Source: Dethiobacteria bacterium
GTDB lineage: Bacteria; Bacillota; Dethiobacteria; DTU022; UBA8154
Direction: 5' to 3'
Assembly: GCA_050942625.1 (NCBI GenBank)
Contig: JBMNNS010000001.1
Location: 8,891 to 72,890, forward strand
Length of the DNA stretch: 64,000 nt
Both the position numbers and the translations under genes were made by a program. The notes beneath the pieces were generated by a model. The model saw only the letters and a program-made list of their open reading frames with translations. It did no database searches and was not told the origin of the DNA. The stretch's first letter is position 1; each line of letters opens with the position of its first letter. Below are positions 1,709 to 23,641 of the stretch, piece by piece.

Positions 1709-1783
1709 TTTTGGCGGAAAACGCACCTCCATAAAAACAAATTTCTTCATCAGGCTTATCTCGGGCTTATCCAGATTAATTGA

Positions 1784-2314: not shown

Positions 2315-2366
2315 TAAATATCACCCTTCATGTTTCCGAAATTTAGATAACCTTTAGAAAATTTAT

Positions 2367-3263
2367 CTAGGATCTTGGGTGGGTTTTTAAATAAGTTCTT
2401 TTAATATTTTCTTTTGTTATATGGGTATAGAGCTGGGTTGTGGATATGCTAACATGCCCAAGCATTTCCTGAACAATTCTTAAATCTGCACCGGCATTTA
2501 ACAAATGGCTGGCAAAGGAATGCCTTAATACATGGGGACTGATATCATGGCAGTAACTTATTTTTAGGCCATAATTATGTACCATGCGCCTAACACTCCT
2601 GTCGGATAACCTTTTTCCAAATTTGTTTAGAAATAGTGCAGGACTTTTAATTACTTCCTTATTAGCTTCTTCCAGAACAGGCCTGCTTTTTTTTAGATAT
2701 AGCGCAAGAGCCTGTAAAGCATAAGCACCTAACGGCACCAGGCGTTCCTTAGAGCCCTTGCCATATACTTTCAAAAGCCCTTCTTCCATATCTACAGCAG
2801 CAAGATCCAGGCCGGTAAGTTCGCTTACCCTTATACCGGCCCCATAAAGTACCTCTAGTATGGCTATATCCCTGCAACCCAAAACGGTTTTCTGATCGGG
2901 GGCAGCAAGAAGCTCCAAAACCTCATCAACATAAAGAAACTTGGGAAGTTTCTTTCCTTTTTTGGGAGAAGCAATAATTTCCCAAGTGTTATTCAGGAGT
3001 TTATTTTCCCTTTTTAGATAACTTAAAAAGGCCCGGATTGCTGACAATTTCCTGGCAATTGTAGTCCGAGTATAGTTATATTCTTTTAACAAGGCAAGAT
3101 ATTGTCGCAACAACGGATAATTAATTTGCCCTATATTTATCGAATTTTGATCGATAAAACGTAAAAATTGTAAAATGTCAGACCTGTAACTTTGAACAGT
3201 TAATGGGGCTGCATTCTTTTCTAGCTCTAAAAACTGTAAAAAACCCTTAAAATGATTGTCCAT
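2367..3263 (-). CDS. xerC: Tyrosine recombinase XerC (CodV-like)
   Basis: It is 298 aa with the C-terminal catalytic motifs 'LRHSFASHLL' and 'HVSISTTQLYTH'. Its position upstream of hslVU matches codV/xerC. Confidence 0.88.
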   Translation of the reverse strand: MDNHFKGFLQFLELEKNAAPLTVQSYRSDILQFLRFIDQNSINIGQINYPLLRQYLALLKEYNYTRTTIARKLSAIRAFLSYLKRENKLLNNTWEIIASPKKGKKLPKFLYVDEVLELLAAPDQKTVLGCRDIAILEVLYGAGIRVSELTGLDLAAVDMEEGLLKVYGKGSKERLVPLGAYALQALALYLKKSRPVLEEANKEVIKSPALFLNKFGKRLSDRSVRRMVHNYGLKISYCHDISPHVLRHSFASHLLNAGADLRIVQEMLGHVSISTTQLYTHITKENIKRTYLKTHPRS

Positions 3264-5497: not shown

Positions 5498-6604
5498 CTA
5501 AATCCTTACATAGTATTGCCCGGGCATCTGTTTAATAAGCCCCTTGAGTTCTAAATTTAAAAGTAAGAGATTAATAAGGGTAAGGTGCACTCCGCTTTGA
5601 CGACTAATATCTTCTAAAAGAAGGGGTTCATAGGATATACAGTTAAGTAGTTTAAGTTCGTCTTCTCCTATTTCAAGTTCTTCATGTTCTTTGTTTTTTA
5701 ATGAATCAATTGGATGCTTATTATCACTGGGGAAAACTGCTATTTCCTCTAAAATATCATCGACCTTCTCTGTAAGTTTTGCCCCCATTTTTATTAGTTT
5801 ATGACACCCTCTGCTATAAGGGCTACCAATTCCTCCTGGAACAGCAAAAACTTCTCTGCCTTGTTCCAGGGCAAAATCTGCGGTAATAAGGGCTCCGCTA
5901 TTTTCTTTTGCTTCTACAACTAATATTCCCAAAGAAAGACCGCTTATGATCCTGTTTCTGCGTGGGAAATTCCCGGGGAATGGTTTGGTTTGGGGGGGAA
6001 ATTCGCTAACAACAACGCCAGAATAAGCTATTTTTTCCCAGAGTTTTTTATTTTCGGGTGGATAACAAATATCTACTCCACAGCCCAGCACGGCTACCGT
6101 CTTCCCACCAGAATCTACAGCCCCTTTATGTGACCAGGAATCTATGCCGCGGGCCAGGCCGCTGACTATCGCAAATCCTGAGTTAGACAATAGTGAAGCA
6201 AATTTATAGGCTATTTCCCTCCCGTAAACAGTGTGACGGCGGCTGCCAACTATGCCTAAACAAGGTTTTTCATTTAAAATACCAATATCCCCCTTATAAT
6301 ATAATATGGAAGGGGGATCATAAATATTTAACAATGACTGGGGATAAGCAGGTTCTTCCCAGGTTACTGCAGAACAACCGGTTTTCAGGAACTGTTGCCA
6401 GGATTGTTCTGGATCAATTTTTTGGCGTGCATTAACAATTTGCTGTGTCAGGCTTGGACCAAAACCCCCGATGGCTTGAAACTCACTGGCAGAAGCCTCC
6501 CAGATGGCCACAGGGTTGCCAAAATGCTTGATTAATTTTTTCATCCTCAGTGGTCCAAGGGATGGTATTAAGTTTAATGCATGATAGTATTTTGCGGATA
6601 ACAA
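5498..6604 (-). CDS. dprA: DNA processing protein DprA (Smf)
   Basis: It is 368 aa. 'GIVGSRRHTVYGREIAYKFASLLSNSGFAIVSGLARGIDSWSHKGAV...VLGCGVDICYP' is the DprA Rossmann core. It lies upstream of topA as in Firmicutes. Confidence 0.9.
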   Translation of the reverse strand: MLSAKYYHALNLIPSLGPLRMKKLIKHFGNPVAIWEASASEFQAIGGFGPSLTQQIVNARQKIDPEQSWQQFLKTGCSAVTWEEPAYPQSLLNIYDPPSILYYKGDIGILNEKPCLGIVGSRRHTVYGREIAYKFASLLSNSGFAIVSGLARGIDSWSHKGAVDSGGKTVAVLGCGVDICYPPENKKLWEKIAYSGVVVSEFPPQTKPFPGNFPRRNRIISGLSLGILVVEAKENSGALITADFALEQGREVFAVPGGIGSPYSRGCHKLIKMGAKLTEKVDDILEEIAVFPSDNKHPIDSLKNKEHEELEIGEDELKLLNCISYEPLLLEDISRQSGVHLTLINLLLLNLELKGLIKQMPGQYYVRI

Positions 6605-6730: not shown

Positions 6731-7963
6731 CTATTCCAAATTTTCATATTCTATAATGCGTTTTTCCCAGGTTCGGACCAGCAACTTGTTAGTTCCCATA
6801 GAGATGAGATACTGGGGAAGCATCGGTGTTTTCCCATAGCCGCCTGGTGCATTTACAATATAAGTTGGTATGGCAAGCCCAGAAGTATATCCTCTTAATT
6901 TCTCCATAATTTCAATACCTTCTTCAACCTTGGTGCGAAAGTGTGAAGTACCTTTTACTCCCTTGGCGTGGAATAAGTAATAAGGCTTGACCATGTTTTT
7001 AAGGAGCTCATGGTTTAATTTTCTCATCAACAAAGGATCATTATTGATACCTTTTAATAATACTGCCTGGTTCCCAAGGCTGATTCCACTTTTGGCAAGG
7101 GCCATTAAAGCTTCCCTTGCATCTGGTGTAATCTCCAAAGGGTGATTGACCTGGATATTAAGATAAAGGGGTAAATGTTCACTTAACATCCGGCATAACT
7201 CAGGTGTAATTCTGTATGGTAATGTAATAGGAACCCTGGACCCCAAACGTTTAATTTCTACGTGGGGTATGCGATCAAGCTCTGTTAGCAACCAATCCAG
7301 GGTTTCATCAGCAAGCATTAAGGCATCTCCACCGGTAAGAAGCACATCTCTTATTTCTTCCGTTTCAGCAATATACTGTATGGCAGCTTCTAAATTTTCC
7401 CTGGGGGTCTCAGTATCCACCTCACCAATATTGCGTCGACGCTGGCAATGGCGACAGAAAGAAGCACACTGGTTAGTTACATTAATAATAAGGCGGTCCG
7501 GATATCTCCGGGTAATTGCCGGGGCAGGTGAAGTAAATTCCTCAGCCATGGGATCCATAACCCCACTACTATCATAATATTCCAGCCCACTGGGTATGGA
7601 CTGCAGGCGAACAGGGTCGTCTTTCTTTTGAGGATCTATAAGACTAAGATAATAAGGCACCACAGCCCAGCGGAATTTAGAACCTGCTAAGGATATTTCT
7701 TCTTTTTCCTCCGCCGTAAGCTCAATTAATTGCGCGAGGGTATCCACATCGGAAATCCGTTTCTTTAACTGCCATTTCCAATCCAGCCATTCCTGATCGG
7801 AGGCCTTAAAAAATGTTTTAATTTTTTCCTGCCGTTCCCTAATCTGTTGCCATTCCGTAAAACCCGTTGGGATAGATCCCTGGTATTCCAGATAATCCTT
7901 AATATTGTCTTTAAGTTCCTTGCAGCGTTTTAAGGCTATCTCCTTACGTACATTTGTTTCCAT
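6731..7963 (-). CDS. eam: KamA-family radical SAM aminomutase; residue signature indicates glutamate 2,3-aminomutase
   Basis: It is 410 aa with the radical-SAM motif 'CASFCRHCQRRR' and the PLP-lysine motif 'NAPGGYGK'. Aligned to Clostridium subterminale lysine 2,3-aminomutase, Asp293 becomes Lys ('HAKGVKGTSHFR' vs 'QCDLSLGLEHFR') and Asp330 becomes Asn ('VNAPGG' vs 'VDAPGG'). Confidence 0.75.
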   Translation of the reverse strand: METNVRKEIALKRCKELKDNIKDYLEYQGSIPTGFTEWQQIRERQEKIKTFFKASDQEWLDWKWQLKKRISDVDTLAQLIELTAEEKEEISLAGSKFRWAVVPYYLSLIDPQKKDDPVRLQSIPSGLEYYDSSGVMDPMAEEFTSPAPAITRRYPDRLIINVTNQCASFCRHCQRRRNIGEVDTETPRENLEAAIQYIAETEEIRDVLLTGGDALMLADETLDWLLTELDRIPHVEIKRLGSRVPITLPYRITPELCRMLSEHLPLYLNIQVNHPLEITPDAREALMALAKSGISLGNQAVLLKGINNDPLLMRKLNHELLKNMVKPYYLFHAKGVKGTSHFRTKVEEGIEIMEKLRGYTSGLAIPTYIVNAPGGYGKTPMLPQYLISMGTNKLLVRTWEKRIIEYENLE

Positions 7964-8118: not shown

Positions 8119-8484
8119 TTAGCATTCTGTAGAGATTTCTGTTATTCTATTTTTTTCATCAACAAAAACTACCTTGGGGGAATAATTTTGCAGCTCCTCC
8201 TGGGAATAATGGGCATAACTAATAATAATAACAATGTCACCGCTTTGTACCAACCGGGCTGCAGCACCATTCAAGCAAATCTCACCCTTGCCACGCTCTC
8301 CTTTGATGACATATGTTTCCAGTCTGGCTCCATTATTGATATTAACAACATGTACCTTTTCATAGGGCAGGATGTCCGCCTTTTCCAGCAGTTCAGCATC
8401 AATGGTTATACTTCCTACATAATTAAGGTTTGAATCTGTAACAGTTGCCCTGTGTATTTTAGATTTACAAATTGTGCGCCACAA
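8119..8484 (-). CDS. panD: Aspartate 1-decarboxylase proenzyme
   Basis: It is 121 aa. '[29 protein letters not shown]' carries the Gly-Ser self-processing site at VGS. Confidence 0.93.
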
Positions 8485-10340: not shown

Positions 10341-11207
10341 TTAGCCTCCTAATAATTTTTTTAAGGCTTTTTGCCCTTCTTCCTGCAGGGTTCCTTTCCT
10401 AACGGCAAGCCCGGCAGTATAAATTCCCAGTTCTTTGTACAGCGGCAAAAAATCCGGGATTAGTTCCTTTAATTGTTTAAGATGAGCGCTAATAGTGGGA
10501 AGATCACCCCTGGCAATCGGGCCGGTTAAAGCTTTTTCAGTGCCAAGCTCCTTGATGTTTTTTAGTGTGGAATCAATAAGAGGGGATAGGGCTTCCATCG
10601 CCTGTCCAGCAGAAATCCCCATTGGCTCATACATCAAAAAAGCCATATCCATCAGTGAGGAAAGATAGTTACAGGCTACACATGCTGCCGCATGATAAAG
10701 GGCTTTCATTTCCGTGGGTATAGAAAGCATCTTTCCTTCCAGGGCTGTTACCAATTCCTCTGCAACAGGGTAGGCTTCCTTGTCTCCTTCTACAGCATAA
10801 TAGGTGCCCGGCAAGGAACGTATTCCCACTTCAAACCCTGGAAATGTTTGCAGGGGGTGAAAAGAGATTACTTGGGCACCTTCTTTACTTGCTGAAAGCA
10901 AAACACTGGAACTATGGGCTCCACTTGTATGCAAAACCAACTGTCCTTTTTTAAAAGCATCCCGAGCTGCCATTTGTTCACATACTTCCTCAATAAGACG
11001 ATCAGGGGTTGTAATAAACACTATTTCCGCATCTGCCGCAGCCTTTGCTGGATCATCAAAAACTGCACAGTCCAATAATCTGGCTGCTGTTTCCCTTGAA
11101 GCCTGAGTTTTAGCAGTAGCGGCCAGAATCCGGTAACCTTTTTCTTTCAAAGCATAACCCAGGACCTTTCCTACGTTTCCAGCACCAATGATTGATATTG
11201 TTTTCAT
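10341..11207 (-). CDS. Rossmann-fold NAD(P)-binding / DUF2520-type oxidoreductase, putative ketopantoate reductase (PanG-like)
   Basis: '[20 protein letters not shown]' is a GxGxxG dinucleotide fold. It is the first gene of the pan operon. The ORF-track start at 11261 is a GTG that runs through the upstream terminator hairpin, whereas the ATG at 11207 has the RBS AAGGTGG. Confidence 0.55.
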
Positions 11208-11221
11208 GACCACCTTACCCC

Positions 11222-11259
11222 GTATAAAATAATAAAGCCTTTCTGCCGAGCAGAAAGGC
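11222..11259 (-). terminator. Intrinsic terminator or attenuator hairpin immediately upstream of the pan-operon RBS
   Basis: Stem gcctttctg, loop ccgag, stem cagaaaggc (9 bp plus a 5-nt loop). On the minus strand it is followed by UUUAUUAUUUUAUAC. Confidence 0.55.
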
Positions 11260-11384
11260 ACAGTATGACCCTTTTCATGTACCCCTGTCCCGGTCCTGTA
11301 TCTGGCTCCAGGCAGAAAAAAAGGTTTATTGATTTGTTTTTTAAAAATTACGCTGGTGCAGGTTCCGGTTCCCGCCCAAAAAAT

Positions 11385-11413
11385 ATTTTACCATTTTTTA
11401 AAACAAGATGCAA
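11385..11413 (-). promoter_or_regulatory. Candidate sigma-A promoter driving the pan leader
   Basis: The minus strand reads TTGCAT, then a 17-nt spacer, then tgGTAAAAT. It is about 170 nt upstream of the panG-like ATG, so the terminator hairpin lies inside the predicted 5' leader. Confidence 0.4.
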
Positions 11414-11439
11414 GAACAAAATTGCTTATATTTAAGTTT

Positions 11440-12438
11440 TTACGGCCACTTATCCTTTAATATCTCCAATAATAGGGTAATACCGTTTTCTATGTCCTTC
11501 AGGTCGACTATTTCTGCCGGTGTATGTACATAGCGGCAGGGAATGGATAACACCCCGGCTGGAACACCCTCCCTGGAAAGATGAATTGCGCCGGCATCAG
11601 TGCCGCCCCTTTCTAGTATTTCCAATTGATAAGGAATTTTATTTTTCTCTGCAATTTCTATCATCCGGCCTGTCACCTCAGGATGACAAATGATAGATGA
11701 ATCTTTAATTTTTATGGCAGGACCTTTGCCCAGAGAAACCTCCATTTTGAATTCAGGTTTTGGTGTGTCGCCTACCCTGGTTACATCTACCGCTATCCCA
11801 TAGTCCGGTTTGAGGCGATATGCAATAGGGCCGGCCCCTCTGAGTCCAACCTCCTCCTGCACAGTAAAGACAAAATAAAGATTGTTTGGCAATGAATCCG
11901 GGACTTTTTTCAAGGTCTCCAACAAAACTGCGCAACCGACGCGGTTATCCAATGATTTGGCAACAATTCTGTCCCCATTTTGGTGAAAGGAGGCAAAAAA
12001 AGCAGCTGTATCACCTATTCTAACCATTTTCAGGGCTTCATCCCTATCTTTAGCCCCTATATCAATATATAATTTGTTTAGGGCCAGGTCTTTTCGTTGT
12101 TTAAGCTTTTCCTGCCCAATAACCCCGACTGTCCCATTACTAAAAATTACTTTAGAGCCAACCAGAGTGTTTAGCAGAAGGCCACCGATGTTGGTAAAAC
12201 GTAAAAACCCTTTTTCATCAATAAAGGTAACCATAAAACCGATTTCATCCATATGGGCTGCCAACAAAATGTCCTTTTTTGCAGCAGGGCTTTTTTTGAT
12301 TGCAACTAAATTTCCAAGGGGATCAATAAAGATTTCATCACAATACTTTTTTGCCTCTTCTTCAATCAATAAGCGTATTTTTTGCTCAGAACCTGCAGGC
12401 CCAAAGGTTGCGGTTAGCTTTTGAATTAAATCCCTCAT
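11440..12438 (-). CDS. M42 family metallo-aminopeptidase (TET/FrvX-like), paralogue 3
   Basis: It is 332 aa. 'AHMDEIGFMVT', 'LDNRVGC' and 'VQEEVGLRGA' are M42 metal-ligand motifs. Confidence 0.88.
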   Translation of the reverse strand: MRDLIQKLTATFGPAGSEQKIRLLIEEEAKKYCDEIFIDPLGNLVAIKKSPAAKKDILLAAHMDEIGFMVTFIDEKGFLRFTNIGGLLLNTLVGSKVIFSNGTVGVIGQEKLKQRKDLALNKLYIDIGAKDRDEALKMVRIGDTAAFFASFHQNGDRIVAKSLDNRVGCAVLLETLKKVPDSLPNNLYFVFTVQEEVGLRGAGPIAYRLKPDYGIAVDVTRVGDTPKPEFKMEVSLGKGPAIKIKDSSIICHPEVTGRMIEIAEKNKIPYQLEILERGGTDAGAIHLSREGVPAGVLSIPCRYVHTPAEIVDLKDIENGITLLLEILKDKWP

Positions 12439-12439
12439 T

Positions 12440-13459
12440 TTACAACCCCCTTATGTTAACTGATCTAATAAAGGAATCTACTATTTCCACAAGGTGTCTC
12501 CAATCATCAAGGCATAACTGAGAAACCGGTGTATGAATATAGCGGCAGGGCGTAGAAATCACACCGGAGATAACACCACCACGGGAAACTGAAACGGCTC
12601 CAGCATCAGTAAAGCTGCCGGTATAACGGCGAAATTGATAGGGCCTTTTTTCTTGCTCGGCTATTTCGATCAAACGCTCAAGAAGCTTAGGGTGCGTAAT
12701 AACTGAATTATCCATTAAGGTAAAAGCGGGACCAGAGCCCAGGGACGTAGAATGATCTTGTTCCTTAGCACCCGGCACATCAACCGCCAGCGTTGTTTCA
12801 ATGATGAGGGCAATCTCAGGTTTTACATGGTAAGCGGCTACTTTTGCCCCCCTAATTCCAACCTCCTCCTGGACTGTAAAGACTGCGGTAAAGTTAAAGG
12901 GGTAATCCCTTTTTAGGATCTGCAACAGAGCTGCACACCCTGCCCTGTTGTCCAGCGCTTTGCCCCTGAAATAATGGTCAGTGCTTTCTGCTGTGGTATC
13001 AAAAGTAACGTAATCACCTATTTTGACATGCTTTTCGGCCTCTTCCTTATTTTTTACACCAATATCAATATATAATTGCTCAACTTCCAGTGTTTTTTGG
13101 CGTTCTTCTTTTTTTTGCAGGTGAATGGCTTTAGCACCAATCACACCACTAATACCGCGGGAACCAATTTTAACGGGCTTGGAAACAAGAAAATCCTTGT
13201 TAACCCCACCTACTAAATAAAAACGCAGGTGGCCGTTTTTTTCTATGGAGGAAATCATTAAACCAACCTCATCCATATGGGCAGAAAGCATAAGGCTTTG
13301 TTCCCCAGCAGTTCCCCCTTCTTTGAAGGCATACAGATTACCCATGGTGTCCACATAATTTTTTATACCCCAGGCCTCCAATTTTTCTCTAATAAAATTT
13401 CTAACCCTTCTTTCATCACCGGAAACACCACTTATTTGGGAAAGTTCTTTTAGATACAT
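12440..13459 (-). CDS. M42 family metallo-aminopeptidase, paralogue 2
   Basis: It is 339 aa. 'AHMDEVGLMIS', 'LDNRAGC' and 'VQEEVGIRGA' are present. Confidence 0.88.
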   Translation of the reverse strand: MYLKELSQISGVSGDERRVRNFIREKLEAWGIKNYVDTMGNLYAFKEGGTAGEQSLMLSAHMDEVGLMISSIEKNGHLRFYLVGGVNKDFLVSKPVKIGSRGISGVIGAKAIHLQKKEERQKTLEVEQLYIDIGVKNKEEAEKHVKIGDYVTFDTTAESTDHYFRGKALDNRAGCAALLQILKRDYPFNFTAVFTVQEEVGIRGAKVAAYHVKPEIALIIETTLAVDVPGAKEQDHSTSLGSGPAFTLMDNSVITHPKLLERLIEIAEQEKRPYQFRRYTGSFTDAGAVSVSRGGVISGVISTPCRYIHTPVSQLCLDDWRHLVEIVDSFIRSVNIRGL

Positions 13460-14502
13460 CTTAATCCCTCCACAAATTCCTCATCTATCCCTGCTACAAA
13501 ATAAGCAAGCAACCTGCCGGCAACCCTGATATCCTCCAGGTCAACCAGCTCAACGGAAGTATGCATGTAGCGTAATGGTATAGAAAGAAGCCCGGTTGGT
13601 ACACCTTCCAGGCTTACCTGGATAGCCCTGGCATCAGTTCCGGTAGGGCCTGGGGAAATATCCTTCTGGCAAGGAAGATGATATTCATGGGCGATTTGCT
13701 GTAGTTTTTCAGCAACATGGGGATGTATGTTTGGTCCATAGGTGACAACCGGTCCTTTACCCAGCTCAGAAACTTCATGTTCCGCTGCCCCCGGAAAATT
13801 GCCATGGCAAACATCGATAGCAATACCGATATCAGGGGCAATACCATATGTCGAAGTTATGGCACCCCTTACGCCCACTTCTTCCTGGACAGTCGCCACC
13901 ATATAAACATCAGCTTCGTGGTTAATACGGGTTAGCTCTTGCAGGCATTGCCATAAAACCGCCACCCCGGCACGATCATCGAGTGCTTTACCGGCCCGGC
14001 ATTTATTCTGGAGGGTAAGAAATTTTCTTTTAATAGCCACAACATTTCCAGGTTTGATAAGCTCACGAACTACTTCCGCCGGAAGGCCGGTGTCAATAAA
14101 CAAATCTTCCATTTTGACACCCTTACCTTTTTCCGAGGCTTTTTTTAGGTGAGGTGCCTTAAAACCAATTATACCAGTCACAGGCTTTTGACCATATACA
14201 GTCACTTCCTGACCTGTTAGGGTACGCTGATCAAAACCCCCAATAGCTGTAAAGCGCAGGAAACCTTCGTCTTCCAACCTGGTAACCATTAGCCCAATTT
14301 CATCCATATGGGCACATAAAATGATCCTTGGCCTCCCTTTTCCCTTTCCTTTTTTATATAGAATAAGGTTTCCCAGACTATCTTTTCTGATACTATCCAA
14401 TTGGGGAGCAAAAATATTTTTAATATAGTTACTTACGTCTTTTTCAAAACCTGAAACACCATCTATTTCTGTTATTTTTTGTAACAGATCATGCAAATCC
14501 AA
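13450..14502 (-). CDS. M42 family metallo-aminopeptidase, paralogue 1
   Basis: It is 350 aa. 'AHMDEIGLMVT', 'LDDRAGV' and 'VQEEVGVRGA' are present. Confidence 0.88.
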   Translation of the reverse strand: MDLHDLLQKITEIDGVSGFEKDVSNYIKNIFAPQLDSIRKDSLGNLILYKKGKGKGRPRIILCAHMDEIGLMVTRLEDEGFLRFTAIGGFDQRTLTGQEVTVYGQKPVTGIIGFKAPHLKKASEKGKGVKMEDLFIDTGLPAEVVRELIKPGNVVAIKRKFLTLQNKCRAGKALDDRAGVAVLWQCLQELTRINHEADVYMVATVQEEVGVRGAITSTYGIAPDIGIAIDVCHGNFPGAAEHEVSELGKGPVVTYGPNIHPHVAEKLQQIAHEYHLPCQKDISPGPTGTDARAIQVSLEGVPTGLLSIPLRYMHTSVELVDLEDIRVAGRLLAYFVAGIDEEFVEGLRCI

Positions 14503-14546
14503 TAAAAACTAACCTCCTTCCACAATTGCCCTTTTTTATACTAATA

Positions 14547-15653
14547 CTAAGTTTGTTTGTTTTGCTCTGGGAAGTTATTATAAAGTATTTCTTGTAGTTC
14601 CCTGGTAACTGCATAAACTTTTTCGGCCTGGGGGATGGTTAGGGTCCCTGTGCCGCAACTGGGTGTAATTAAATACTGTTTTGTTAAAAGCCCGGGATCA
14701 ACCCCCTTCTGTGCCAGGCGCTGCACCAAGGCATAAAACCTTTCCTTTAAAGATTGGGCATTTTCCTTTTCAATAGCTTCCGAGGTTGGAACGATGCCCC
14801 AGGCCAGACAGCCGCCCCGGCGCAAAAAGGAGTTCAATTCTTCAGCATAGACTAGCATGGAATCAAAATAGTTATAAGCATCAAAATTAATAATATCAAA
14901 GGGCAACTCCAGTAAAAGGGACCAGTCCACCCCAGAACAACAATGTACGCCTGCATAAGCATCTTCAGCTTTGATTGCAAAAAGGACATCTTCAATACTG
15001 GCAGATATGTCATCCCTTGAGAGGGAAATAAAGGAAGATTGGCCATAGCAGTATATTGCTGGATCGTCAATAAAGATTACTACAGGTAAGGAATGTTTTT
15101 TTAATTCCCGTATCTGGGCCCTTGATATTAAAGCTAAAAGCTTATTAATGATATCCCGCAGTTCTTCTTCATAAAAAGCAACAGTACCGTCTTCTGTACT
15201 AATCTGTAAACCAATGGTAAGTGGCCCACCAACATGGCCTTTTAGAAAGGCAGGCCTTTTCCCAGGTTTATCCCATTTTTCTTTTAAAAAAGCGTAAAAA
15301 CCTGCTGCCGCATCGGCAGGAAAAGAAAAAAAAGAAAGTACTTCTTCCTTTCCCTTGCCCTCTTCTAAAGAATCCAAATAAAATTGATAAAACTGTTCAA
15401 GCTTACCTAACCAGCCCTTCTCTTTGTTAAGGAAAAAAGGTGTATCATCTTTTTCTATTTCAAGCATTTTTAATTTTACCAGCGGGGTCAAATTTTGCCT
15501 GACAAAACTTTCTTTTCTTCCACGTTTTGGGAGTTGGGGCCAGTGTGGTCCATGGGGCAAATATTCTTTTATAAGATCTATAGCTTGATCAGCTTCCTGA
15601 TGGGGTGTACTTCCAACGCCTGTTGCTAAACCATAAAGAAATCCATTCTGCAA
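14547..15653 (-). CDS. MetE C-terminal-domain-like (Meth_synt_2 / URO-D-like fold) zinc methyltransferase-family protein; substrate unknown
   Basis: It is 368 aa. 'VVIFIDDPA' resembles the MetE 'IQIDEPA' motif, 'GVHCCSG' resembles the 'HMCY' Zn-ligand His-x-Cys, and 'ITPSCGTG' resembles 'PDCGL'. There is no N-terminal MetE domain. Confidence 0.4.
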   Translation of the reverse strand: MQNGFLYGLATGVGSTPHQEADQAIDLIKEYLPHGPHWPQLPKRGRKESFVRQNLTPLVKLKMLEIEKDDTPFFLNKEKGWLGKLEQFYQFYLDSLEEGKGKEEVLSFFSFPADAAAGFYAFLKEKWDKPGKRPAFLKGHVGGPLTIGLQISTEDGTVAFYEEELRDIINKLLALISRAQIRELKKHSLPVVIFIDDPAIYCYGQSSFISLSRDDISASIEDVLFAIKAEDAYAGVHCCSGVDWSLLLELPFDIINFDAYNYFDSMLVYAEELNSFLRRGGCLAWGIVPTSEAIEKENAQSLKERFYALVQRLAQKGVDPGLLTKQYLITPSCGTGTLTIPQAEKVYAVTRELQEILYNNFPEQNKQT

Positions 15654-15693
15654 ATGATCCCCTCCAAATACATAATTTAAGGTTCCATGTAAA

Positions 15694-17334
15694 TTAACAG
15701 CCGTTAACCATCCGTTCTTCTTCCCAGGTCATTTCTTTAAATGCCTTTTTAAAGTCATCAATTTTGGGGCTCTGGTTACAAAGCAAACCATATTCTACAC
15801 TATCAACAAGGGCAATCCAACTGGCTTCAATAATATTTTCAGAAACCCCTACAGTCCCCCACTGTTTATTGTCGTCCTTGGAGAAAATAAGGACTCTAAC
15901 TTTGGAGGCCGTGCCTTCTTTACCGTCAAAAACCCGGACTTTATAATCCACTAATTTAATTTTCTTCAGTTCCGGATATATTTCCTCCAAAGCTTTGCGC
16001 AAGGCACTGTCCATAGCATGCACAGGGCCGTTCCCTTCGGCAGCAGTATGAACAATCCTATCCCCAACCCTTAATTTAATAGTAGCTTCCACATAGAAAT
16101 CGTCTTCACGCCACTGTTTATCAACGATGACACGGAAACCCTCCAACTTAAAAAAAGGCTGGTAGGCTTTCATCGTTTTCCAGATCAGCAGTTCAAAGGA
16201 TCCTTCTGCACCTTCAAACTGGTAACCCTCATGTTCCATTTTTTTGAGGGTATCAAGTATTTCTTTGGCTTCAGGATATGTGTTAATCAATTGAATTTTA
16301 TTTTCACGAACTTTTAAAAGGATGTTACTTTTACCGGAAAGCTCGGAAACCAAAATGCGCCTTTTATTGCCTATTTCCTCTGGAACAGCATGTTCGTAGG
16401 TACAGGCATGTTTGGAAACGGCATCAACATGGAGCCCACCCTTATGCGTAAAGGCATTTCTGCCCACATACGGCTGGTTATCCTGGGGTGTCATGTTTGC
16501 CAGTTCGGCTACTACTTTAGAAATGTTGGTTAGTTCTTTTAATTGCTGGGAACTAAATTTATTAATCCCTAATTTAAATTGTATATTGGGTATGATTGTG
16601 CATAGATCGGCGTTCCCACATCGCTCACCGTAGCCATTCACTGTCCCCTGCAAATGGGTTGCCCCGCTTTGCAAAGCAATAATGGTATTTGCCACAGCCA
16701 TCCCACTGTCATTATGGGCATGAATCCCTAGAGGAACGGCAATTTCCTTTCTGATTTCCTCAATAATCTCCTGGATTTCCAGGGGCATGGTCCCACCATT
16801 TGTATCGCATAAAACAATGGTGTCAGCTCCACCTTTGGCTGCTGCCTTGATGGTTTCCAGGGCATAATGGGGATTGCTTTTATATCCGTCAAAAAAATGT
16901 TCTGCATCATAAAATACTTCCCGGTTTTTGTTTTTCAAGAAAGATACTGACTCCTCTATCATAGCAAGGTTCTCTTTGAGGGTCGTATCCAGGGCATTAA
17001 AAACATGGAAGTCCCAACTTTTCCCCACAATTGTAACGACAGGGGTATTCGCTTCTAGCAAAGCTTTAAGATTATTATCAAGTTCAACTTTTTGGTGGGC
17101 ACGCCTTGTGCTGCCAAAAGCGGCAAGTTTGGCATTTTTTAAGGTTAGTTCCTGCACCTTCTGGAAAAAATCCAGATCTTTTGGGTTAGATCCCGGCCAT
17201 CCTCCCTCAATATAATCAACACCAAGATTATCTAGAAGTTTTACTATTTGAAGTTTATCACCCACAGAAAAAGAAATACCTTCTCTCTGGGCTCCATCCC
17301 GTAATGTTGTATCATAGATTATTACCTTATTCAT
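15694..17334 (-). CDS. cimA: (R)-citramalate synthase (LeuA/CimA family)
   Basis: '[54 protein letters not shown]' is the CimA-type N-terminus. The length (about 546 aa) suits the C-terminal LeuA-dimer regulatory domain. The ORF-track TTG start at 17346 is replaced here by the ATG at 17334. Confidence 0.8.
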
Positions 17335-17520
17335 AACATCCTCCAAAAAACCCCTCCTTAATTTAGCGCTATTATACTATAATGCTAAAAAAGTGTCTAC
17401 TACACACAGTTTATACTCCCACAATTGCCAAATACTAATTATAAATGGTTTTTTTATTGTATGAATAGTTCCCCGGCAAAAGGATAACCTAAACAGGAAA
17501 ACACGGAAAGGAGGGGTAAA

Positions 17521-17751
17521 ATGCAAACGACGACCAAGATCAAAAATATTGGCAAAGCCGAATTTATGTCTCTTTTTCACCAGTATCAAAGTGAATCCCT
17601 ATGTTCCAAGAAACTATCCAACTATATGAATCAGGTTGAGGACACCACCTTGAAAAATATGCTCAGCCAAATGAGCATCCAGTGTCAGGAAAGGGCTGAA
17701 AATCTTTCATCACTACTACAAGAAGCCGGTGGTGGCCATTTACTAACTTAG
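17521..17751 (+). CDS. Small CotF-like / ferritin-like spore coat-associated protein
   Basis: It is 76 aa. It has a helical low-complexity pattern resembling the Coat_F family and the neighbouring gene. AGGAGGGG lies 5 nt upstream. Confidence 0.4.
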   Translation: MQTTTKIKNIGKAEFMSLFHQYQSESLCSKKLSNYMNQVEDTTLKNMLSQMSIQCQERAENLSSLLQEAGGGHLLT

Positions 17752-17773
17752 TACTAAGGAAGGAGGGCTATTA

Positions 17774-18010
17774 ATGCCACAAATGCAACAATTCTCTGAT
17801 AAGGATATTGCAAGCGACATTTTGTCGGGTTCAAAATTATTATCACAAGGGTATATGACGGCAATCCTTGAATCCCAGGATCAAAACCTGCGCCAAACTT
17901 TCCAAAATTATCATGATCAGTGTATAAACGAACACCATCAAATATTTCAAATGATGCAAAAAAACGGGTGGTATAAAGTTCCTATGATCCTTGATGAAAG
18001 CAGACCATAG
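17774..18010 (+). CDS. Spore coat protein F (Coat_F domain) family protein
   Basis: 'FSDKDIASDILSGSKLLSQGYMTAILESQDQNLRQTFQNYHDQCINEHHQIFQMMQKNGWYKVP' matches the Coat_F consensus (L.DKDIA.D.L...K......Y..A..E..N..LR). The RBS is AAGGAGGG. Confidence 0.65.
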   Translation: MPQMQQFSDKDIASDILSGSKLLSQGYMTAILESQDQNLRQTFQNYHDQCINEHHQIFQMMQKNGWYKVPMILDESRP

Positions 18011-18030
18011 TATTTTCTAGGAGTGAATAG

Positions 18031-18453
18031 GTGATGAGTCTTATCGAATGGAATCCCTTTAGGGAAATGGAAAAAGAAATGAGCAATTATTTAGAACGTT
18101 CTCCCTTTAGGTTCTTCGGTGGTTTTGGTACACCAAGAGTTGATATTTACCAAACCGAAAAGGATATTACAGTTAAGGCTGAAATACCGGGGGTTTCAAA
18201 GGAAGACCTCAATATTTTTATAGATGAAAATTCTATCCGGTTGTCGGGAAAAACCAAAAAGGACGAAGTGTTTAAGGACGAAAATGTCTACAAAAGAGAA
18301 AGATATTTTGGTAGTTTTTCCAGAACAATACCTCTTCCTGCAGAGGTAAATTCGGAACAGGCAACAGCAGAATATCATGACGGTATACTATCCATTACCG
18401 CTCCCAAAATTGAGCCTTCCAGAACCAGGGGCAGAAGGATTGATATCCATTAA
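18031..18453 (+). CDS. Hsp20/alpha-crystallin family small heat-shock protein (CotM/CotP-like)
   Basis: It is 140 aa. 'VDIYQTEKDITVKAEIPGVSKEDL...ERYFGSFSRTIPLP...DGILSITAPK' forms an alpha-crystallin domain. Confidence 0.85.
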   Translation: MMSLIEWNPFREMEKEMSNYLERSPFRFFGGFGTPRVDIYQTEKDITVKAEIPGVSKEDLNIFIDENSIRLSGKTKKDEVFKDENVYKRERYFGSFSRTIPLPAEVNSEQATAEYHDGILSITAPKIEPSRTRGRRIDIH

Positions 18454-18456
18454 GAA

Positions 18457-18480
18457 AACCAGGCTTTTGCCTGGTTTTCT
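18457..18480. terminator. Bidirectional intrinsic terminator between hsp20 (+) and comM (-)
   Basis: The sequence is aaaaccaggc-tttt-gcctggtttt. The 8-bp GC-rich stem is flanked by an A-run and a T-run, so it works on both strands. Confidence 0.7.
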
Positions 18481-18541
18481 TAATGGGGTCCAGCTACATA
18501 AATACTGAAAAGAAAGTCTTTCATGCTTGTTTTTCTGTAAA

Positions 18542-20083
18542 TCAATATTTCCGATCCAGGCTCCTATATTGGATGGCTTCTGCAATATGTTCAGAAGCTA
18601 TTCTATCCTCCCCCTCCAGATCGGCGATCGTCCGTGCTACTTTAATAATCCTGTCATGTGCCCTCATGGACAAAGATAAGGAATCAAAGACACGGCGTAA
18701 AAGGCTGCGAGCATCTTTGTCAAGGGGGCAAAATTCTTGCAGATGGCGGTGTGACATTTCTGCATTACAACTAATCCCCCTGTCTTTAAACCTGTTCCTT
18801 TGGATCTCCCGCACCTTTTCCACCCTTTTTTTAATTTCAAGAGAACTTTCAAGATGGCTGTCGTCTTCTATTTCTTTATATTCTATCCAGGGCACCTCAA
18901 CATGCAGGTCTATCCTGTCCATCAGGGGGCCGGATGATTTCATCTGGTAGCGCCGTATCTGTGCTTCAGTACAATTGCACTCCCGAAATGGATGCTGAAA
19001 AAAACCGCAGGGGCATGGGTTCCTGGAAGCAACTAACATAAAGCGTGCAGGGTAGCGCACGGTCATTTCCGCCCTGGTTATCGTGACCTCCCCATCTTCT
19101 AAAGGTTGACGAAAACCCTCCAAAACGTCTCTGGGGTATTCGGGGAATTCATCCAGGAAAAGGACACCAAGATGGGCTAAGCTTACTTCACCTGGTTGCG
19201 GAATGCGGCCTCCCCCCAGGATCCCGATGGGTGTAGCGGAATGATGGGGGGAACGAAAAGGCCTTTCGGTAATCAGAGGGTTATCCTCCTTAATTAGCCC
19301 AGCCACGCTATGTATCCTGGTAACCTCCAGACACTCCTCAAGGGTCATGGAAGGCAGTATGGAGGGTATCCTTTTTGCCAGCATAGTTTTCCCGGTGCCG
19401 GGAGGGCCGGTCAGAATTATATTATGCCCCCCGCATGCAGTAATTTCCAGGGCCCTCTTAACAGCCTGGTGGCCCTTAACTTCACTGAAGTCAAGTTTTT
19501 CCTTTCCATCTCCCCTGGCATAGATATCTTCAAGGTTGGCTTCAATATTGGGGAGTGCTATTTCACCCCTGAGGTAGGCAGCCAGTTCTTGTAAATTTGT
19601 GACACCCTTCACAAAAATACCTCCCACCAGTGAAGCTTCCAGAGCATTTCCCCGCGGGAGAATTAATTCCCGGCCGCCATTTTTCCCCAGGCTATTTTTG
19701 AGATAAAGGGCCATAGCAAGTGTTCCCGGAACTTCCCTTAATTCCCCGTCCAGCGAAAGTTCACCCACAAATACCTTTTGTTCCAGGGATAAAGGCGGCA
19801 ACTGGGAAGTTGCCACGAGGATTCCAACCGCAATTGCCAGATCAAAAGCCGAGCCGTCCTTCTTCAAGTCTGCAGGTGCCAAATTAACGGTAATACGTTT
19901 AGCGGGAAACTTAAAGCCGCTATTTTTAAGTGCTGCCCTGACTCTTTCCCGTGCCTCCTTGATCGAGGTAGCTGCTAATCCAACGATCTGGAAATTTGGC
20001 AAACCATTTGCTATGTCAACCTCTACAGAAATATCGTGTCCGTCTATACCTACAAGAGTACATGTGGGGACCCTTGAAAACAT
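18542..20083 (-). CDS. comM: YifB/ComM family Mg-chelatase-like AAA+ ATPase
   Basis: It is 513 aa. It has an N-terminal Lon-like domain ('TLVGIDGHDISVEVDIANGLPNFQIVGL'), a Walker A 'TGPPGTGKTM', and an Mg-chelatase-like C-terminus. Confidence 0.9.
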   Translation of the reverse strand: MFSRVPTCTLVGIDGHDISVEVDIANGLPNFQIVGLAATSIKEARERVRAALKNSGFKFPAKRITVNLAPADLKKDGSAFDLAIAVGILVATSQLPPLSLEQKVFVGELSLDGELREVPGTLAMALYLKNSLGKNGGRELILPRGNALEASLVGGIFVKGVTNLQELAAYLRGEIALPNIEANLEDIYARGDGKEKLDFSEVKGHQAVKRALEITACGGHNIILTGPPGTGKTMLAKRIPSILPSMTLEECLEVTRIHSVAGLIKEDNPLITERPFRSPHHSATPIGILGGGRIPQPGEVSLAHLGVLFLDEFPEYPRDVLEGFRQPLEDGEVTITRAEMTVRYPARFMLVASRNPCPCGFFQHPFRECNCTEAQIRRYQMKSSGPLMDRIDLHVEVPWIEYKEIEDDSHLESSLEIKKRVEKVREIQRNRFKDRGISCNAEMSHRHLQEFCPLDKDARSLLRRVFDSLSLSMRAHDRIIKVARTIADLEGEDRIASEHIAEAIQYRSLDRKY

Positions 20084-20496: not shown

Positions 20497-21273
20497 TTAT
20501 AAAGAGGCCGCCACACAAACATTACGGCCAATATCGGGAATATGGTGTAAACGCAGGTCCACACCATAAAGGGAGGATAAAAAGTGTTCGTTGATCAGTG
20601 TGTTGGAACTACCAAAGATGAATTGCCCGTTGCTATTAATGGCTGCCACCTCCCCGCCCAGCAGTAAGGCGTGATCGGGGTTGTGGGTCGTGATTACAGC
20701 AGCATATCCTTCGGCAGCCAATTTTTTTATGATCTTCAAGACCTTGATCTGGTTTCCATAATCCAGATGGGCGGTAGGTTCGTCCATCAATATTACCCTT
20801 GGTTTTTGGACCAGGGCCCTGGCTATACTGACCTGTTGTCTTTCACCCCCGCTGATCTGTGTATAGTACTTATGTGCTAAATGGGAGATCCCCATCTGCT
20901 CAAGTGCACGCTCTGCTAATTTATAATGTTCCCTTTTTGGTTTTTCGAAGGTGCCCAGCCTTGGTGCACAACCTGTAACAACATAGCTGAGCACCTCATA
21001 AGCAAAGGAAGGGACAATAAATTGTGGCACGTAGGCAATCTTGTTAGCAATTTCCTTTGCTTTCATTTGTATCAGGCTTTTTCCGTCTAACAGTATTTCC
21101 CCACTTTTCGGTGTAAGTAGATTTGCCATGCAATTCAACAGCGTTGTTTTGCCAACGCCGTTAGGGCCGATGATGCAGATAATCTGCCCCCGGCTTACGG
21201 AAAAAGAAATATCGTTAAATATTGTTGGGCCGCCAGCATAGACAAAACTAAGTTTTTTAATTTCTATAATCAT
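20497..21273 (-). CDS. ABC transporter ATP-binding protein (iron-siderophore/cobalamin FepC/FecE-type)
   Basis: 'GPNGVGKTTLLN' is Walker A, 'LSGGERQQVSIARAL' is the ABC signature, and 'ILMDEPT' is Walker B. The true start is the ATG at 21273 (MIIEIKKLS) with the RBS AGGTGGGG. The ORF-track N-terminal extension is spurious. Confidence 0.9.
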   Translation of the reverse strand: MIIEIKKLSFVYAGGPTIFNDISFSVSRGQIICIIGPNGVGKTTLLNCMANLLTPKSGEILLDGKSLIQMKAKEIANKIAYVPQFIVPSFAYEVLSYVVTGCAPRLGTFEKPKREHYKLAERALEQMGISHLAHKYYTQISGGERQQVSIARALVQKPRVILMDEPTAHLDYGNQIKVLKIIKKLAAEGYAAVITTHNPDHALLLGGEVAAINSNGQFIFGSSNTLINEHFLSSLYGVDLRLHHIPDIGRNVCVAASL

Positions 21274-21283
21274 TTTTCCCCAC

Positions 21284-22333
21284 CTAAAAAACATTTGTCC
21301 TTTGCCTGTACAATAACCACGCATAACAGGGAGCACCAATTACTCCTGTCAGGATCGAAAGGGGTATTTCTACCGTTAATGTAGCACGTGCAATTGTGTC
21401 GATAATCAGCATAAAGAGGGCACCTGCTACCACTGTAACCGGTATCATCTTAATATGATCAGAACCGACAAGCAATCGCGCCAGGTGTGGTATTACCAGG
21501 CCAATCCAGCCAATCGTTCCACAGACACTTACAGCACTGGCAGTTAGGAAGCTGGCACAGGCAATGGTGATACCTCTTATCTGCCTGACGTCCATACCAA
21601 GGGTTTTGGCCTCGACTTCCCCAAAGGAAAGGATATTTATGCGCCATGATAAACTTAGAAGTAGAAATGTACAAATTAAAAATGCGGGGCTAATGGCACC
21701 TACTTCCTTCATGTTGATGGGAGAAAAACTGCCCATTTGCCAGAATACAATCGTCGAAAGTTCGGTTTGTTCCTCGGCAACAAATTTCATTATGGCGAGC
21801 AGCGATGTCAAAAACCCTCCCACGATGATGCCCGAAAGCACAAGAACCAGGTTAGAATAATTCTTTAGCAATTTCGGAATTGTCGTAGCCAGCACCACTG
21901 CTAAGATGCCCCCCAAAAAAGCAAAAAATTGTCTTTCAACCATTCCCAGTCCAAGTAAAATAGCAGCAGCAGCACCTACGCTGGCTCCCGATGAAACACC
22001 AAGAATATCGGGGGAAATGAGGGGGTTTCTAAAGATCCCCTGATAAACCGCCCCCGAAAGAGAAAGCATCGCTCCAACCATAATTGCTGCCAAAACACGG
22101 GGTATTCTGATTTTAAACAGTGCTATTTCCATGCCCTCTAAGGGTTCATCAATGCCGGGCCCCAAACCTAATTTGCTGCTTATTTTATAACTAATGACCT
22201 GGTAAACGTCAACAGGGTTCGCACTCAGCCGGCCAACACAGATAGCCACCAGGGCAAAAAAACAAAGTAGAAACAACAAGATGAAAAAAGTTCGAAGGTA
22301 TATATGCTTGTTCATTATGATTTCCTTAATCAA
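21284..22333 (-). CDS. FecCD-family ABC transporter permease (iron-siderophore/B12 type)
   Basis: It is 349 aa with multiple transmembrane segments. 'RIPRVLAAIMVGAMLSLSGAVYQGIFRNPLISPDILGVSSGA' matches the FecCD/BtuC consensus. Confidence 0.9.
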   Translation of the reverse strand: MIKEIIMNKHIYLRTFFILLFLLCFFALVAICVGRLSANPVDVYQVISYKISSKLGLGPGIDEPLEGMEIALFKIRIPRVLAAIMVGAMLSLSGAVYQGIFRNPLISPDILGVSSGASVGAAAAILLGLGMVERQFFAFLGGILAVVLATTIPKLLKNYSNLVLVLSGIIVGGFLTSLLAIMKFVAEEQTELSTIVFWQMGSFSPINMKEVGAISPAFLICTFLLLSLSWRINILSFGEVEAKTLGMDVRQIRGITIACASFLTASAVSVCGTIGWIGLVIPHLARLLVGSDHIKMIPVTVVAGALFMLIIDTIARATLTVEIPLSILTGVIGAPCYAWLLYRQRTNVF

Positions 22334-22339
22334 AACTAC

Positions 22340-22375
22340 AAGGCTACCCGGGAAAAAGCCGGTAGCCTTGTAATT
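22340..22375 (-). other. Intra-operon stem-loop between the SBP gene and the permease gene
   Basis: The sequence is acaaggctacccggg-aaaaa-gccggtagccttgt, a 14-bp interrupted stem. On the minus strand it sits between the SBP stop codon and the permease RBS. Confidence 0.45.
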
Positions 22376-22393
22376 CGTTTTTGTTATGTTATT

Positions 22394-23641
22394 TTAGCTA
22401 AGTCCCAACTGTTTTGCAGTAAACTTCTTGCCATAAACAAGGTTGTAGAATTCATCTGCATTTTTCATTAAGTCTTCCAGGCTATAAAGCTCGGGATGGA
22501 GGCTGTATAACCCCCAACGCAAGCCCAGTACTGCGGATGCTGTCGGGTAATCCCATGGTTCAAGTTCGGAGGGGAACACATATACAGCTTTTTCCTTTAT
22601 TGCTTTTATGCTGCTCCATTTTGGATCCTTCAGGAGGTCTTCAACCGTGTAGCTTGCATACTTGGGTACCCAGATAATATCGGGATTCCAGGCCATGATT
22701 TGTTCAATATTGACATCTGCAAAGCCACCTTTTACATCTACCCCTTTAACTGCATTAGTGCCGCCGGCCATCTCAATAATATCCGTTTGTATCATTGAAG
22801 ATGTTGCTACAGAAAAGGGGCTGGAGCTTCCCAGAAACATAACGCTTGGACGGGTTTTAACCTTGGCAGCGATAGCCTTTGTTTCGGAAATATTCCTATC
22901 AATAAATGAGTTGATTTTTTTGGCCCTTTCTTCTACACCCAATACTTTGGCAACAATGGTAAGGGAATTTTTAATGGTATCAAAGCTTTCGGAATTCGGA
23001 AGAGCGACAACAGCCGGAATGCCGACATTTTCAAATTTTTCTACCTGTGTTTTGAAGCGCTCCGGCAATATGGCGACATTGTTCTTCCCCAGAGCAACAA
23101 CCGTTTCGAAATTAATGTTATTGCCTTTCCCGATCTCTACAATGCCTTCATAATCTTCCATTACAAAGTCATAAAGTTTGTCAGCCATTTTTTTGTTGCC
23201 AAAGCCGGCAATATACTTGTCCCCCCCGCCTAAAACGATAGCCGTGTTTAGCGATGGGTTATGTGTACCAAGGATCTTGCTTGCCGGACGATCCAATGTA
23301 ACTACGCGGCCGATAACATCGGTAACTGTAATCTTTGTTGATCCGGGAACCGGGGCAGGCTTGGGAGCCGGGGCAGGCTTGGGAGCCGGGGCCGGTGTTG
23401 GGGCTGGAGCCGGAGTTGCTTTTTGATCCGGAATGATCAGTTTTTGTCCAACAAAGATCAAATTGGGATTTTTAAGGTTATTCTTTTTGGCAATGGTGGT
23501 GTAGGGCACACCATAGTTCTTGCCGATCCTCCAGAGGCAGTCTCCTTTTTTTACAACGTACGTAGTATCTGCCGCCAATACCGTTCCCATACATAATAAG
23601 AGCAGAACCACAACTAAAAGCGCACTAATTATTTTTTTCAT
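22394..23641 (-). CDS. Secreted LysM-domain / class III periplasmic-binding-protein fusion (substrate-binding component of the ABC importer)
   Basis: A signal peptide (MKKIISALLVVVLLLLCMGTVLA^AD) is followed by a LysM domain ('YVVKKGDCLWRIGKNYGVPYTTIAKKNNLKNPNLIFVGQKLIIP'). Next comes a Pro-Ala linker (TPAPAPTPAPAPKPAPAPKPAPVPG), then a FecB/FhuD-like binding domain of about 300 aa. Confidence 0.85.
   Translation of the reverse strand: MKKIISALLVVVLLLLCMGTVLAADTTYVVKKGDCLWRIGKNYGVPYTTIAKKNNLKNPNLIFVGQKLIIPDQKATPAPAPTPAPAPKPAPAPKPAPVPGSTKITVTDVIGRVVTLDRPASKILGTHNPSLNTAIVLGGGDKYIAGFGNKKMADKLYDFVMEDYEGIVEIGKGNNINFETVVALGKNNVAILPERFKTQVEKFENVGIPAVVALPNSESFDTIKNSLTIVAKVLGVEERAKKINSFIDRNISETKAIAAKVKTRPSVMFLGSSSPFSVATSSMIQTDIIEMAGGTNAVKGVDVKGGFADVNIEQIMAWNPDIIWVPKYASYTVEDLLKDPKWSSIKAIKEKAVYVFPSELEPWDYPTASAVLGLRWGLYSLHPELYSLEDLMKNADEFYNLVYGKKFTAKQLGLS

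Follow-up and report, generated by a model that had tools for sequence, protein, structure and literature searches.

Among the described systems, the one nearest to the protein considered here is the core-MetE of Dehalococcoides mccartyi CBDB1 (cbdbA481), a 343-aa enzyme characterised by Deobald et al. (2020; PMC7005905), with His215, Cys217, Asp236, and Cys312 as zinc ligands. In this enzyme methylcobalamin, and not methyl-tetrahydrofolate (methyl-THF), donates the methyl group to homocysteine, no activity is seen on cysteine, glutathione, or dithiothreitol, and the Km for free methylcobalamin is about 240 µM, which the authors judged unphysiological; His122, within an HxxG motif, was proposed as a “His-on” cobalamin ligand (PMC7005905). 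Price et al. (2021; PMC7857596) gave the core-MetE family the name MesB. Its members are recognised by their phmmer score to DET0516 (173 bits in the Methods of that paper vs 130 in its Results), by zinc ligands of the pattern His, Cys, Asp/Glu, Cys, by a Ser and an Asp that bind homocysteine, and by a single barrel lacking the folate-binding N-terminal domain; non-enzymatic Chloroflexales homologs without the MesB zinc ligands were also described (PMC7857596). Further family traits are a genome with the CoFeSP genes acsC/acsD of the Wood-Ljungdahl pathway, and transfer of methyl to homocysteine from methylcobalamin but not from 5-methyl-THF, an activity demonstrated solely for the Dehalococcoides enzyme (PMC7005905). 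Here, we analysed a gene of this kind in a 64,000-nucleotide stretch (the window) of contig JBMNNS010000001.1 from a Dethiobacteria bacterium. An initial annotation, made from the sequence alone, had read it as a stand-alone protein resembling the C-terminal domain of MetE, possibly a “core-MetE”. The NCBI name of the exact protein is “hypothetical protein [Dethiobacteria bacterium]” (MGI5875216.1), and one NCBI metagenome-assembled genome (MAG) and two independent SRA assemblies contain an identical protein in an unchanged gene order. The gene and its motifs are as follows.

14547..15653, minus strand: putative mesB-type core methionine synthase gene, 368 aa, TTG start.
15661..15665, minus strand: Shine-Dalgarno sequence GGAGG, 7 nt 5' of the TTG start (direct sequence reading).
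15609..15620, minus strand: GVGS motif, residues 12-15; Ser15 is the equivalent of MetE Ser433 and MesB Ser15.
15222..15242, minus strand: KGHVGGP motif, residues 138-144; His140 aligns with Dehalococcoides His122 (HxxG).
15057..15071, minus strand: IDDPA motif, residues 195-199; Asp196 is the equivalent of MetE Asp599, which binds the homocysteine amino group.
14937..14945, minus strand: HCC, residues 237-239; His237-x-Cys239 are predicted zinc ligands aligning to Dehalococcoides H215/C217 and MetE H641/C643.
14874..14888, minus strand: NFDAY motif; Asp258 is the predicted fourth zinc ligand, replaces MetE Glu665, and aligns to Dehalococcoides D236.
14652..14663, minus strand: PSCG motif, residues 331-334; Cys333 is a predicted zinc ligand aligning to Dehalococcoides C312.

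The reference enzyme was recovered from metagenome contigs by means of the published forward primer. The recovered gene lies on a 465-kb metagenome contig (locus L082) and its 343-aa open reading frame (ORF) starts with MTKTDF and ends with KHGTV and a stop codon, as both published primers require, with W69, H122, H215, C217, D236, and C312 all at the published positions. A second primer match (L081) fell by chance within a membrane protein of no relevance and was discarded. With the L082 protein as phmmer query, a metagenome ortholog possibly not letter-identical to DET0516, the window protein scored 217.6 bits, above both published cut-offs. BLASTP aligned the two proteins over their full length (38% identity, 349 columns, E = 4e-73), residue 1 of the window protein aligning with the Dehalococcoides enzyme and the two remaining collinear onward. 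The zinc ligands correspond one to one (H237/H215, C239/C217, D258/D236, and C333/C312, giving the His, Cys, Asp/Glu, Cys pattern of MesB), and His140 likewise falls on His122. Ser15, whose counterparts Ser433 of MetE and Ser15 of MesB have a role in binding the homocysteine carboxylate (PMC7857596), and Asp196 are both present. The window protein is also a single domain, as the initial annotation had stated in noting the missing N-terminal domain of MetE, and shows the single barrel, free of the folate-binding domain, expected of MesB. The score of 217.6 bits, a MetE-like fold, and intact zinc and homocysteine residues all speak for the earlier reading as a core-MetE and, judged by these alignments, the window gene belongs, as an unremarkable member, to the MesB (core-MetE) family described before.

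Conservation was followed over 79 sequences, consisting of 78 genome-derived homologs and the Dehalococcoides protein. H237, C239, D258, and D196 are invariant (79/79), C333 is found in all 78 alignable homologs, and Ser15 in 76/77. The IDDPA, HCC, and PSCG motifs on which the initial annotation relied are therefore all present and conserved far beyond chance, and its reading of HCC as His-x-Cys is borne out by the variation of the middle residue 238 (C/S/V/A) between invariant ends. The His/Cys/Cys zinc site that it proposed is present and conserved too, but the predicted fourth ligand, Asp258 in NFDAY, had been left out; the corresponding Asp236 is a zinc ligand in the Dehalococcoides enzyme (PMC7005905). 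Position 140 is Gln in 71 of the 79 proteins and His in the other eight, the window protein (nt 15234-15236) being one of these eight. Since about 90% of the relatives carry Gln, a general role of this position as cobalamin ligand appears unlikely from the alignment, which argues against His-on as a general mechanistic feature. Against the Dehalococcoides enzyme, the homologs of the set score between 141 and 255 bits, with the window protein in the upper part, and 18 of the 78 genome-derived homologs, including those of Sporomusa and Desulfitobacterium, lie between 130 and 173 bits. Homologs were found in Moorella, Sporomusa, Desulforudis, Desulfitobacterium, Pelotomaculum, and Calderihabitans, several of which appear in the published MesB taxon list (Price et al., 2021; PMC7857596).

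Profile searches gave a different picture. At E <= 10, the Pfam search of the window protein retrieved no relevant family, and neither Meth_synt_1, Meth_synt_2, nor URO-D; the sole listed match, Thioredoxin_14, was sub-threshold (E = 0.16) and was rejected. NCBIfam and PDB sequence searches with the window protein gave no match, and a profile of 42 family sequences (alignment A1) did not find MetE among PDB sequences. The initial annotation had named the lack of a Meth_synt_2 or URO-D match as a result that would refute its own reading. Such a match is indeed lacking, yet this is not a valid test because the biochemically characterised Dehalococcoides-type protein has no Pfam match at E <= 10 either. 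The protein search yielded at least 2,626 homologs of the window protein; none of the best 120 of these has a Pfam domain (0/120), and the labels among the homologs listed are mostly “hypothetical”, with a few “methionine synthase” or “URO-D/MetE family”. There is thus an annotation gap, with no Pfam or NCBIfam model for the window protein and no Pfam model for the characterised enzyme, so that pathway reconstructions of these anaerobes can be expected to list methionine synthesis as missing, wrongly.

The informative routes, where sequence profiles failed, were the comparison of folds and the direct comparison with the characterised enzyme. The structure prediction that the initial annotation had called for, an AlphaFold2 model on the A1 alignment, was confident (predicted local distance difference test 92.6, predicted template modelling score 0.92) and showed a MetE-like barrel. 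Searching the PDB with this model by Foldseek, the top 15 matches were all cobalamin-independent MetE (best E = 2e-8, 12-16% identity), and structure comparison placed the fold nearer MesD/MetE than URO-D/MtaA. In the hhalign comparison of A1 with E. coli MetE (E = 7e-5), IDDPA falls on IDEPA 598-602, with D196 on Asp599, and V-H-C-C falls on T-H-M-C (His641/Cys643). According to the model, the window protein is a single (beta/alpha)8 barrel like the C-terminal catalytic domain of MetE.

From this combined analysis, the window protein would quite probably be a MesB-type methionine synthase, independent of folate and dependent on a corrinoid. We infer both its homocysteine methyltransferase activity, by homology to the sequence of the Dehalococcoides enzyme, and the identity of its methyl donor in vivo. 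In the proposed mechanism, Zn2+ held by His237, Cys239, Asp258, and Cys333 would bind the thiol of L-homocysteine, whose carboxylate and amino groups would be oriented by Ser15 and Asp196; the zinc would convert the thiol to a thiolate, and SN2 attack of the thiolate on the methyl group of a methyl-Co(III) corrinoid would give methionine and Co(I). Direct use of 5-methyl-THF is not expected because the folate-binding domain is absent. The methyl-Co(III) donor is probably the methylated corrinoid iron-sulfur protein (CoFeSP). Cultured Dethiobacteria carry cooS-acsABCDE (PMC10376724, PMC10608574), and for the source genome we infer, solely from taxonomy, the Wood-Ljungdahl pathway and MesB as the only methionine synthase. 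Eight loci in other genomes point to the same donor: there, the mesB homolog is located between cooC, the carbon monoxide dehydrogenase (CODH) gene (PF03063), an acsB-acsD fusion (domains CdhC, ACS_CODH_B_C, and CdhD), and acsC (domains CdhD and FeS), and is thus within the operon that encodes the proposed methyl donor. They belong to Syntrophales, Leptospirales, Aminicenantes, Fibrobacterota, Spirochaetota, and unclassified Proteobacteria, and in our numbering of loci are the following.

L061, L062, L066, L068, L075, L078, L079, L080: acs-embedded mesB loci, around locus position 10000.

These homologs in several phyla provide independent genomic support for the proposed CoFeSP donor. Clustering of mes genes with Wood-Ljungdahl genes was described by Price et al. 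for methanogens (PMC7857596), and the bacterial acs-embedded loci extend the clustering mentioned there. The fusion protein at L066 is 1,166 aa long and contains CODH_A_N, CdhC, ACS_CODH_B_C, and CdhD.

In the window itself, the gene stands in a different neighbourhood, the main features of which are given below.

15694..17346, minus strand: cimA (citramalate synthase), 40 nt upstream of mesB; TIGR00977, 774 bits vs a cut-off of 450.
11440..14502, minus strand: three tandem M42-family aminopeptidase genes directly downstream of mesB, with a 44-nt gap, a 10-nt overlap, and a 1-nt gap.
17371..17399, minus strand: sigma-70-like promoter match TAGACA-17-TATAAT, 11/12, just upstream of cimA (consensus match only).
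11281..11378, minus strand: pan motif RNA, Rfam RF01749, 47.1 bits vs a gathering score of 36.2.

The TIGR00977 score agrees with the earlier naming of the adjoining gene as cimA. PF05343 was found in the first and third M42 genes (E 1e-90 to 1e-95), and in all three at the equivalent MAG locus (L084), while NCBIfam aminopeptidase models match the M42 genes below their cut-offs. From the short intergenic gaps and the conserved synteny, cimA, mesB, and the three M42 genes probably form one operon; the argument is confined to gaps and synteny because the numbers of promoter and terminator sites in the region equal those expected from shuffled sequence. The match at 17371..17399 is a possible promoter of this operon, and the pan motif RNA, which precedes a DUF2520-panB-panC-panD unit, is likely its 3' boundary.

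The synteny was surveyed by clustering the ORFs of 80 homolog loci and annotating the recurrent neighbours. The order cimA, mesB, three M42 genes, DUF2520, panB, panC is kept in roughly 20 genomes that carry the labels Dethiobacter, Syntrophomonadaceae, or Bacillota. The mesB homolog is adjoined by cimA in 21 loci and always followed by the M42 trio in the Dethiobacteria-like clade (26 loci).

L001-L016, L018, L021-L023, L026, L036, L039, L046: loci listed with the M42 trio after mesB.

The three tandem M42 paralogs resemble the archaeal TET1/2/3 hetero-oligomer sets.

Several observations weigh against a CoFeSP-dependent methionine synthase. In the clade of the window gene, mesB is linked to cimA and M42 peptidases, and not to Wood-Ljungdahl or methionine/S-adenosylmethionine (SAM) genes, and no acs, metF, metH, or metE gene is found within the 64-kb window. 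Neither a SAM riboswitch nor a Met T-box was detected upstream of cimA/mesB in the window at gathering or permissive thresholds, and no SAM riboswitch or T-box was found in 16 other homolog loci. The Dehalococcoides enzyme failed to rescue an E. coli metE mutant (PMC7005905), so that its activity in vivo would depend on a further partner, and Price et al. warn that other donors or functions are conceivable for certain MesB paralogs or “MesB-like” proteins (PMC7857596). A genuine homocysteine methyltransferase of the MesB fold could thus take its methyl group from another corrinoid protein or from a free methylcobamide, in which case His140 (HxxG) could act as the lower axial His-on ligand of the free cofactor. 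The absence of acs linkage in this clade, the retention of the proposed His-on residue in only 8/79 homologs including this one, a btuFCD-like importer about 5 kb away, and the suggestion of Price et al. that some paralogs use other corrinoid proteins (PMC7857596) would all fit such a donor. Nevertheless, the missing acs linkage counts for little, since the majority of MesB genes are unlinked to acs, no corrinoid-protein gene lies nearby in the window, the unphysiological Km noted above disfavours free methylcobalamin, and the eight acs-embedded loci point to CoFeSP; we therefore regard this alternative as unlikely, though worth keeping in view. A narrower version, in which the Dethiobacteria/Syntrophomonadaceae sub-clade specifically has a donor other than CoFeSP, or forms with the M42 peptidases a joint methionine-supply or salvage module, rests on the conserved cimA-mesB-3xM42 block and the rare His140, and appears distinctly doubtful to us.

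The absence of methionine- or SAM-responsive RNA elements at the window locus and the 16 others, together with a conserved cimA/M42 context that is not specific to methionine, could also suggest a “MesB-like” paralog with another acceptor (e.g., another thiol) or role, with MetH or MetE, from a gene elsewhere in the genome, making methionine; according to Price et al., distant homologs of MesB may act differently where the genome has other methionine synthases (PMC7857596). Yet the score of the window protein clearly exceeds the family cut-off and is one of the higher scores of the set, Ser15, Asp196, and the four zinc ligands are conserved, and the characterised enzyme is specific for homocysteine (PMC7005905), making this reading very improbable. 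We give hardly any credence to a split, folate-dependent MetE of which the protein would form the catalytic subunit, or to its membership in the URO-D/MtaA family (as a methylcobamide:coenzyme M-type methyltransferase or a decarboxylase). Split systems exist (PMC7857596), but no Meth_synt_1, Meth_synt_2, or URO-D match was obtained from Pfam, no recurrent Meth_synt_1-like neighbour cluster was seen in 78 loci whose neighbours were scanned in part, the fold is nearer MesD/MetE than URO-D/MtaA, and the protein, which carries the MesB-type Asp instead of the Glu of MetE, shares 38% identity with an enzyme for which methyl-THF is not a donor.

Other homolog loci show further arrangements. In Moorella-type genomes, mesB is directly upstream of mraZ-rsmH-ftsL-ftsI-murE-murF, i.e., the dcw cluster, whose gene rsmH specifies a methyltransferase that depends on SAM; the window has its dcw cluster at 28.7-45.5 kb, 13-30 kb from mesB. 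In 15 loci (Pelotomaculum, Desulforudis, Thermincola, and others), the gene directly after mesB is of the PHP family (HisJ-like, histidinol-phosphatase-type), and at L042 a group II intron (12098-12396, plus strand; RF02001, 130 bits; RF01998, 68 bits) lies just after this gene. At the Dehalococcoides-type locus L082, the gene overlapping and preceding mesB was tentatively read as methylthioadenosine/purine-nucleoside-phosphorylase-like, which would agree with the methionine/SAM-cycle surroundings described for cbdbA476-481.

L020, L025, L029, L032 (Neomoorella, Moorellaceae, Moorella, Thermanaeromonas): mesB-dcw loci, about 11000-20000.
L017, L019, L024, L030, L042, L043, L055, L076, and others: PHP-family gene after mesB.
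L082, 4373-5317 (minus strand) and 1590-3185 (minus strand): mesB neighbourhood on the Dehalococcoides-type contig.

As a whole, the 64-kb window has housekeeping content and comes from a spore-forming member of the Bacillota; it contains the dcw cluster, spoIIGA, two sporulation-type sigma-factor genes, aspS/hisS, relA, secDF, and aro and his genes. Downstream of the pan motif RNA are a DUF2520/Rossmann protein (10341-11261) and panD (8119-8484), and the DUF2520 protein beside panB/panC/panD is a candidate substitute for ketopantoate reductase. A radical-SAM aminomutase gene (6731-7963, minus strand) narrowly exceeds the glutamate 2,3-aminomutase cut-off (TIGR04368, 668 bits vs 650), which suggests beta-glutamate synthesis and would be in keeping with an osmolyte in an alkaliphilic or halophilic organism. 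A second 368-aa ORF with a TTG start (5498..6604) was considered as a mesB paralog and rejected, since it is DprA and the equal length is coincidental. On the other side, the roughly 680 nt upstream of cimA (17347-18030) hold two small ORFs on the opposite strand, which in the equivalent MAG locus are annotated as Coat_F (78 aa) and DUF3231 (76 aa), and beside them is hsp20 (18031-18453). The importer mentioned above is an ATP-binding cassette system of the FecCD/BtuCD type (20497-23641, minus strand) whose Peripla_BP_2 substrate-binding protein (22394-23641) is unusual in being fused to a LysM domain at its N terminus; the sequence upstream of the importer showed no cobalamin riboswitch. A 6S RNA (47685-47862, minus strand; RF00013, 95 bits) lies between aspS and an mgtE-type transporter gene.

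A MesB-type protein is the methionine synthase expected for a Wood-Ljungdahl-type anaerobe, and its recognition here overturns nothing; its value is practical. Of modest interest are the annotation gap, the cimA-mesB-M42 block, the acs-embedded bacterial homologs, and the non-conserved His-on residue. Our literature search found no newer paper on MesB.

Compared with the known systems, the window protein is closest to MesB (D. mccartyi cbdbA481, the DET0516 type). Both are single-domain proteins of about 340-370 aa that share the IGS and (D/E)PA homocysteine motifs and the histidine of HxxG, neither has a Pfam match, and both come from strict anaerobes with the Wood-Ljungdahl pathway (on taxonomic grounds for the window genome). 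The spacing of the zinc site, His-x-Cys...Asp...Cys, is x18 and x74 in the window protein and x18 and x75 in the Dehalococcoides enzyme. The window protein differs in being 25 residues longer, mostly because of extra sequence near residues 95-110 and a tail at the C terminus, and in its gene context, which is cimA-mesB-3xM42 instead of the operon with SAM synthetase and S-adenosylhomocysteine hydrolase genes of Dehalococcoides (cbdbA476-481 neighbourhood; PMC7005905).

The other families are more remote. MesD, the aerobic core methionine synthase (PDB 3RPD, Shewanella), is recognised by a score of 560 bits or more to ACIAD3523, a neighbouring gene for MesX (DUF1852), and a host that lives aerobically; it needs MesX/DUF1852 and O2 and occurs in aerobes, whereas the window host is an anaerobic spore-former. 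MesD was ruled out by the 16% identity to 3RPD, by the anaerobic host, and by the lack of DUF1852 among the annotated and scanned ORFs of the window. The C-terminal domain of MetE (PDB 1T7L/1XPG) is 12-16% identical to the window protein, below Pfam detection, and MetE has an N-terminal folate-binding barrel and Glu as fourth ligand, in contrast to the single barrel and Asp258 found here. Canonical MetE was rejected on these grounds, as the second barrel is lacking, no MetE-family Pfam or NCBIfam model matches at E <= 10, and Asp258 replaces Glu665. The MtaA/MT2 methylcobamide:coenzyme M methyltransferases and URO-D (PF01208) have a lower structural score and no sequence match to the window protein, and the MtaA/MT2 acceptor is coenzyme M, unlike the homocysteine of MesB; the URO-D/MtaA-CmuA family was likewise rejected, given the absence of a profile match and the fold nearer MesD/MetE. 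Finally, MesA and MesC are recognised by at least 174 bits to METE_METTM or at least 38 bits to Q8TUL3 and an archaeal host, and are reported to be less than 30% identical to MesB (PMC7857596), compared with the 38% identity between MesB and the window protein.

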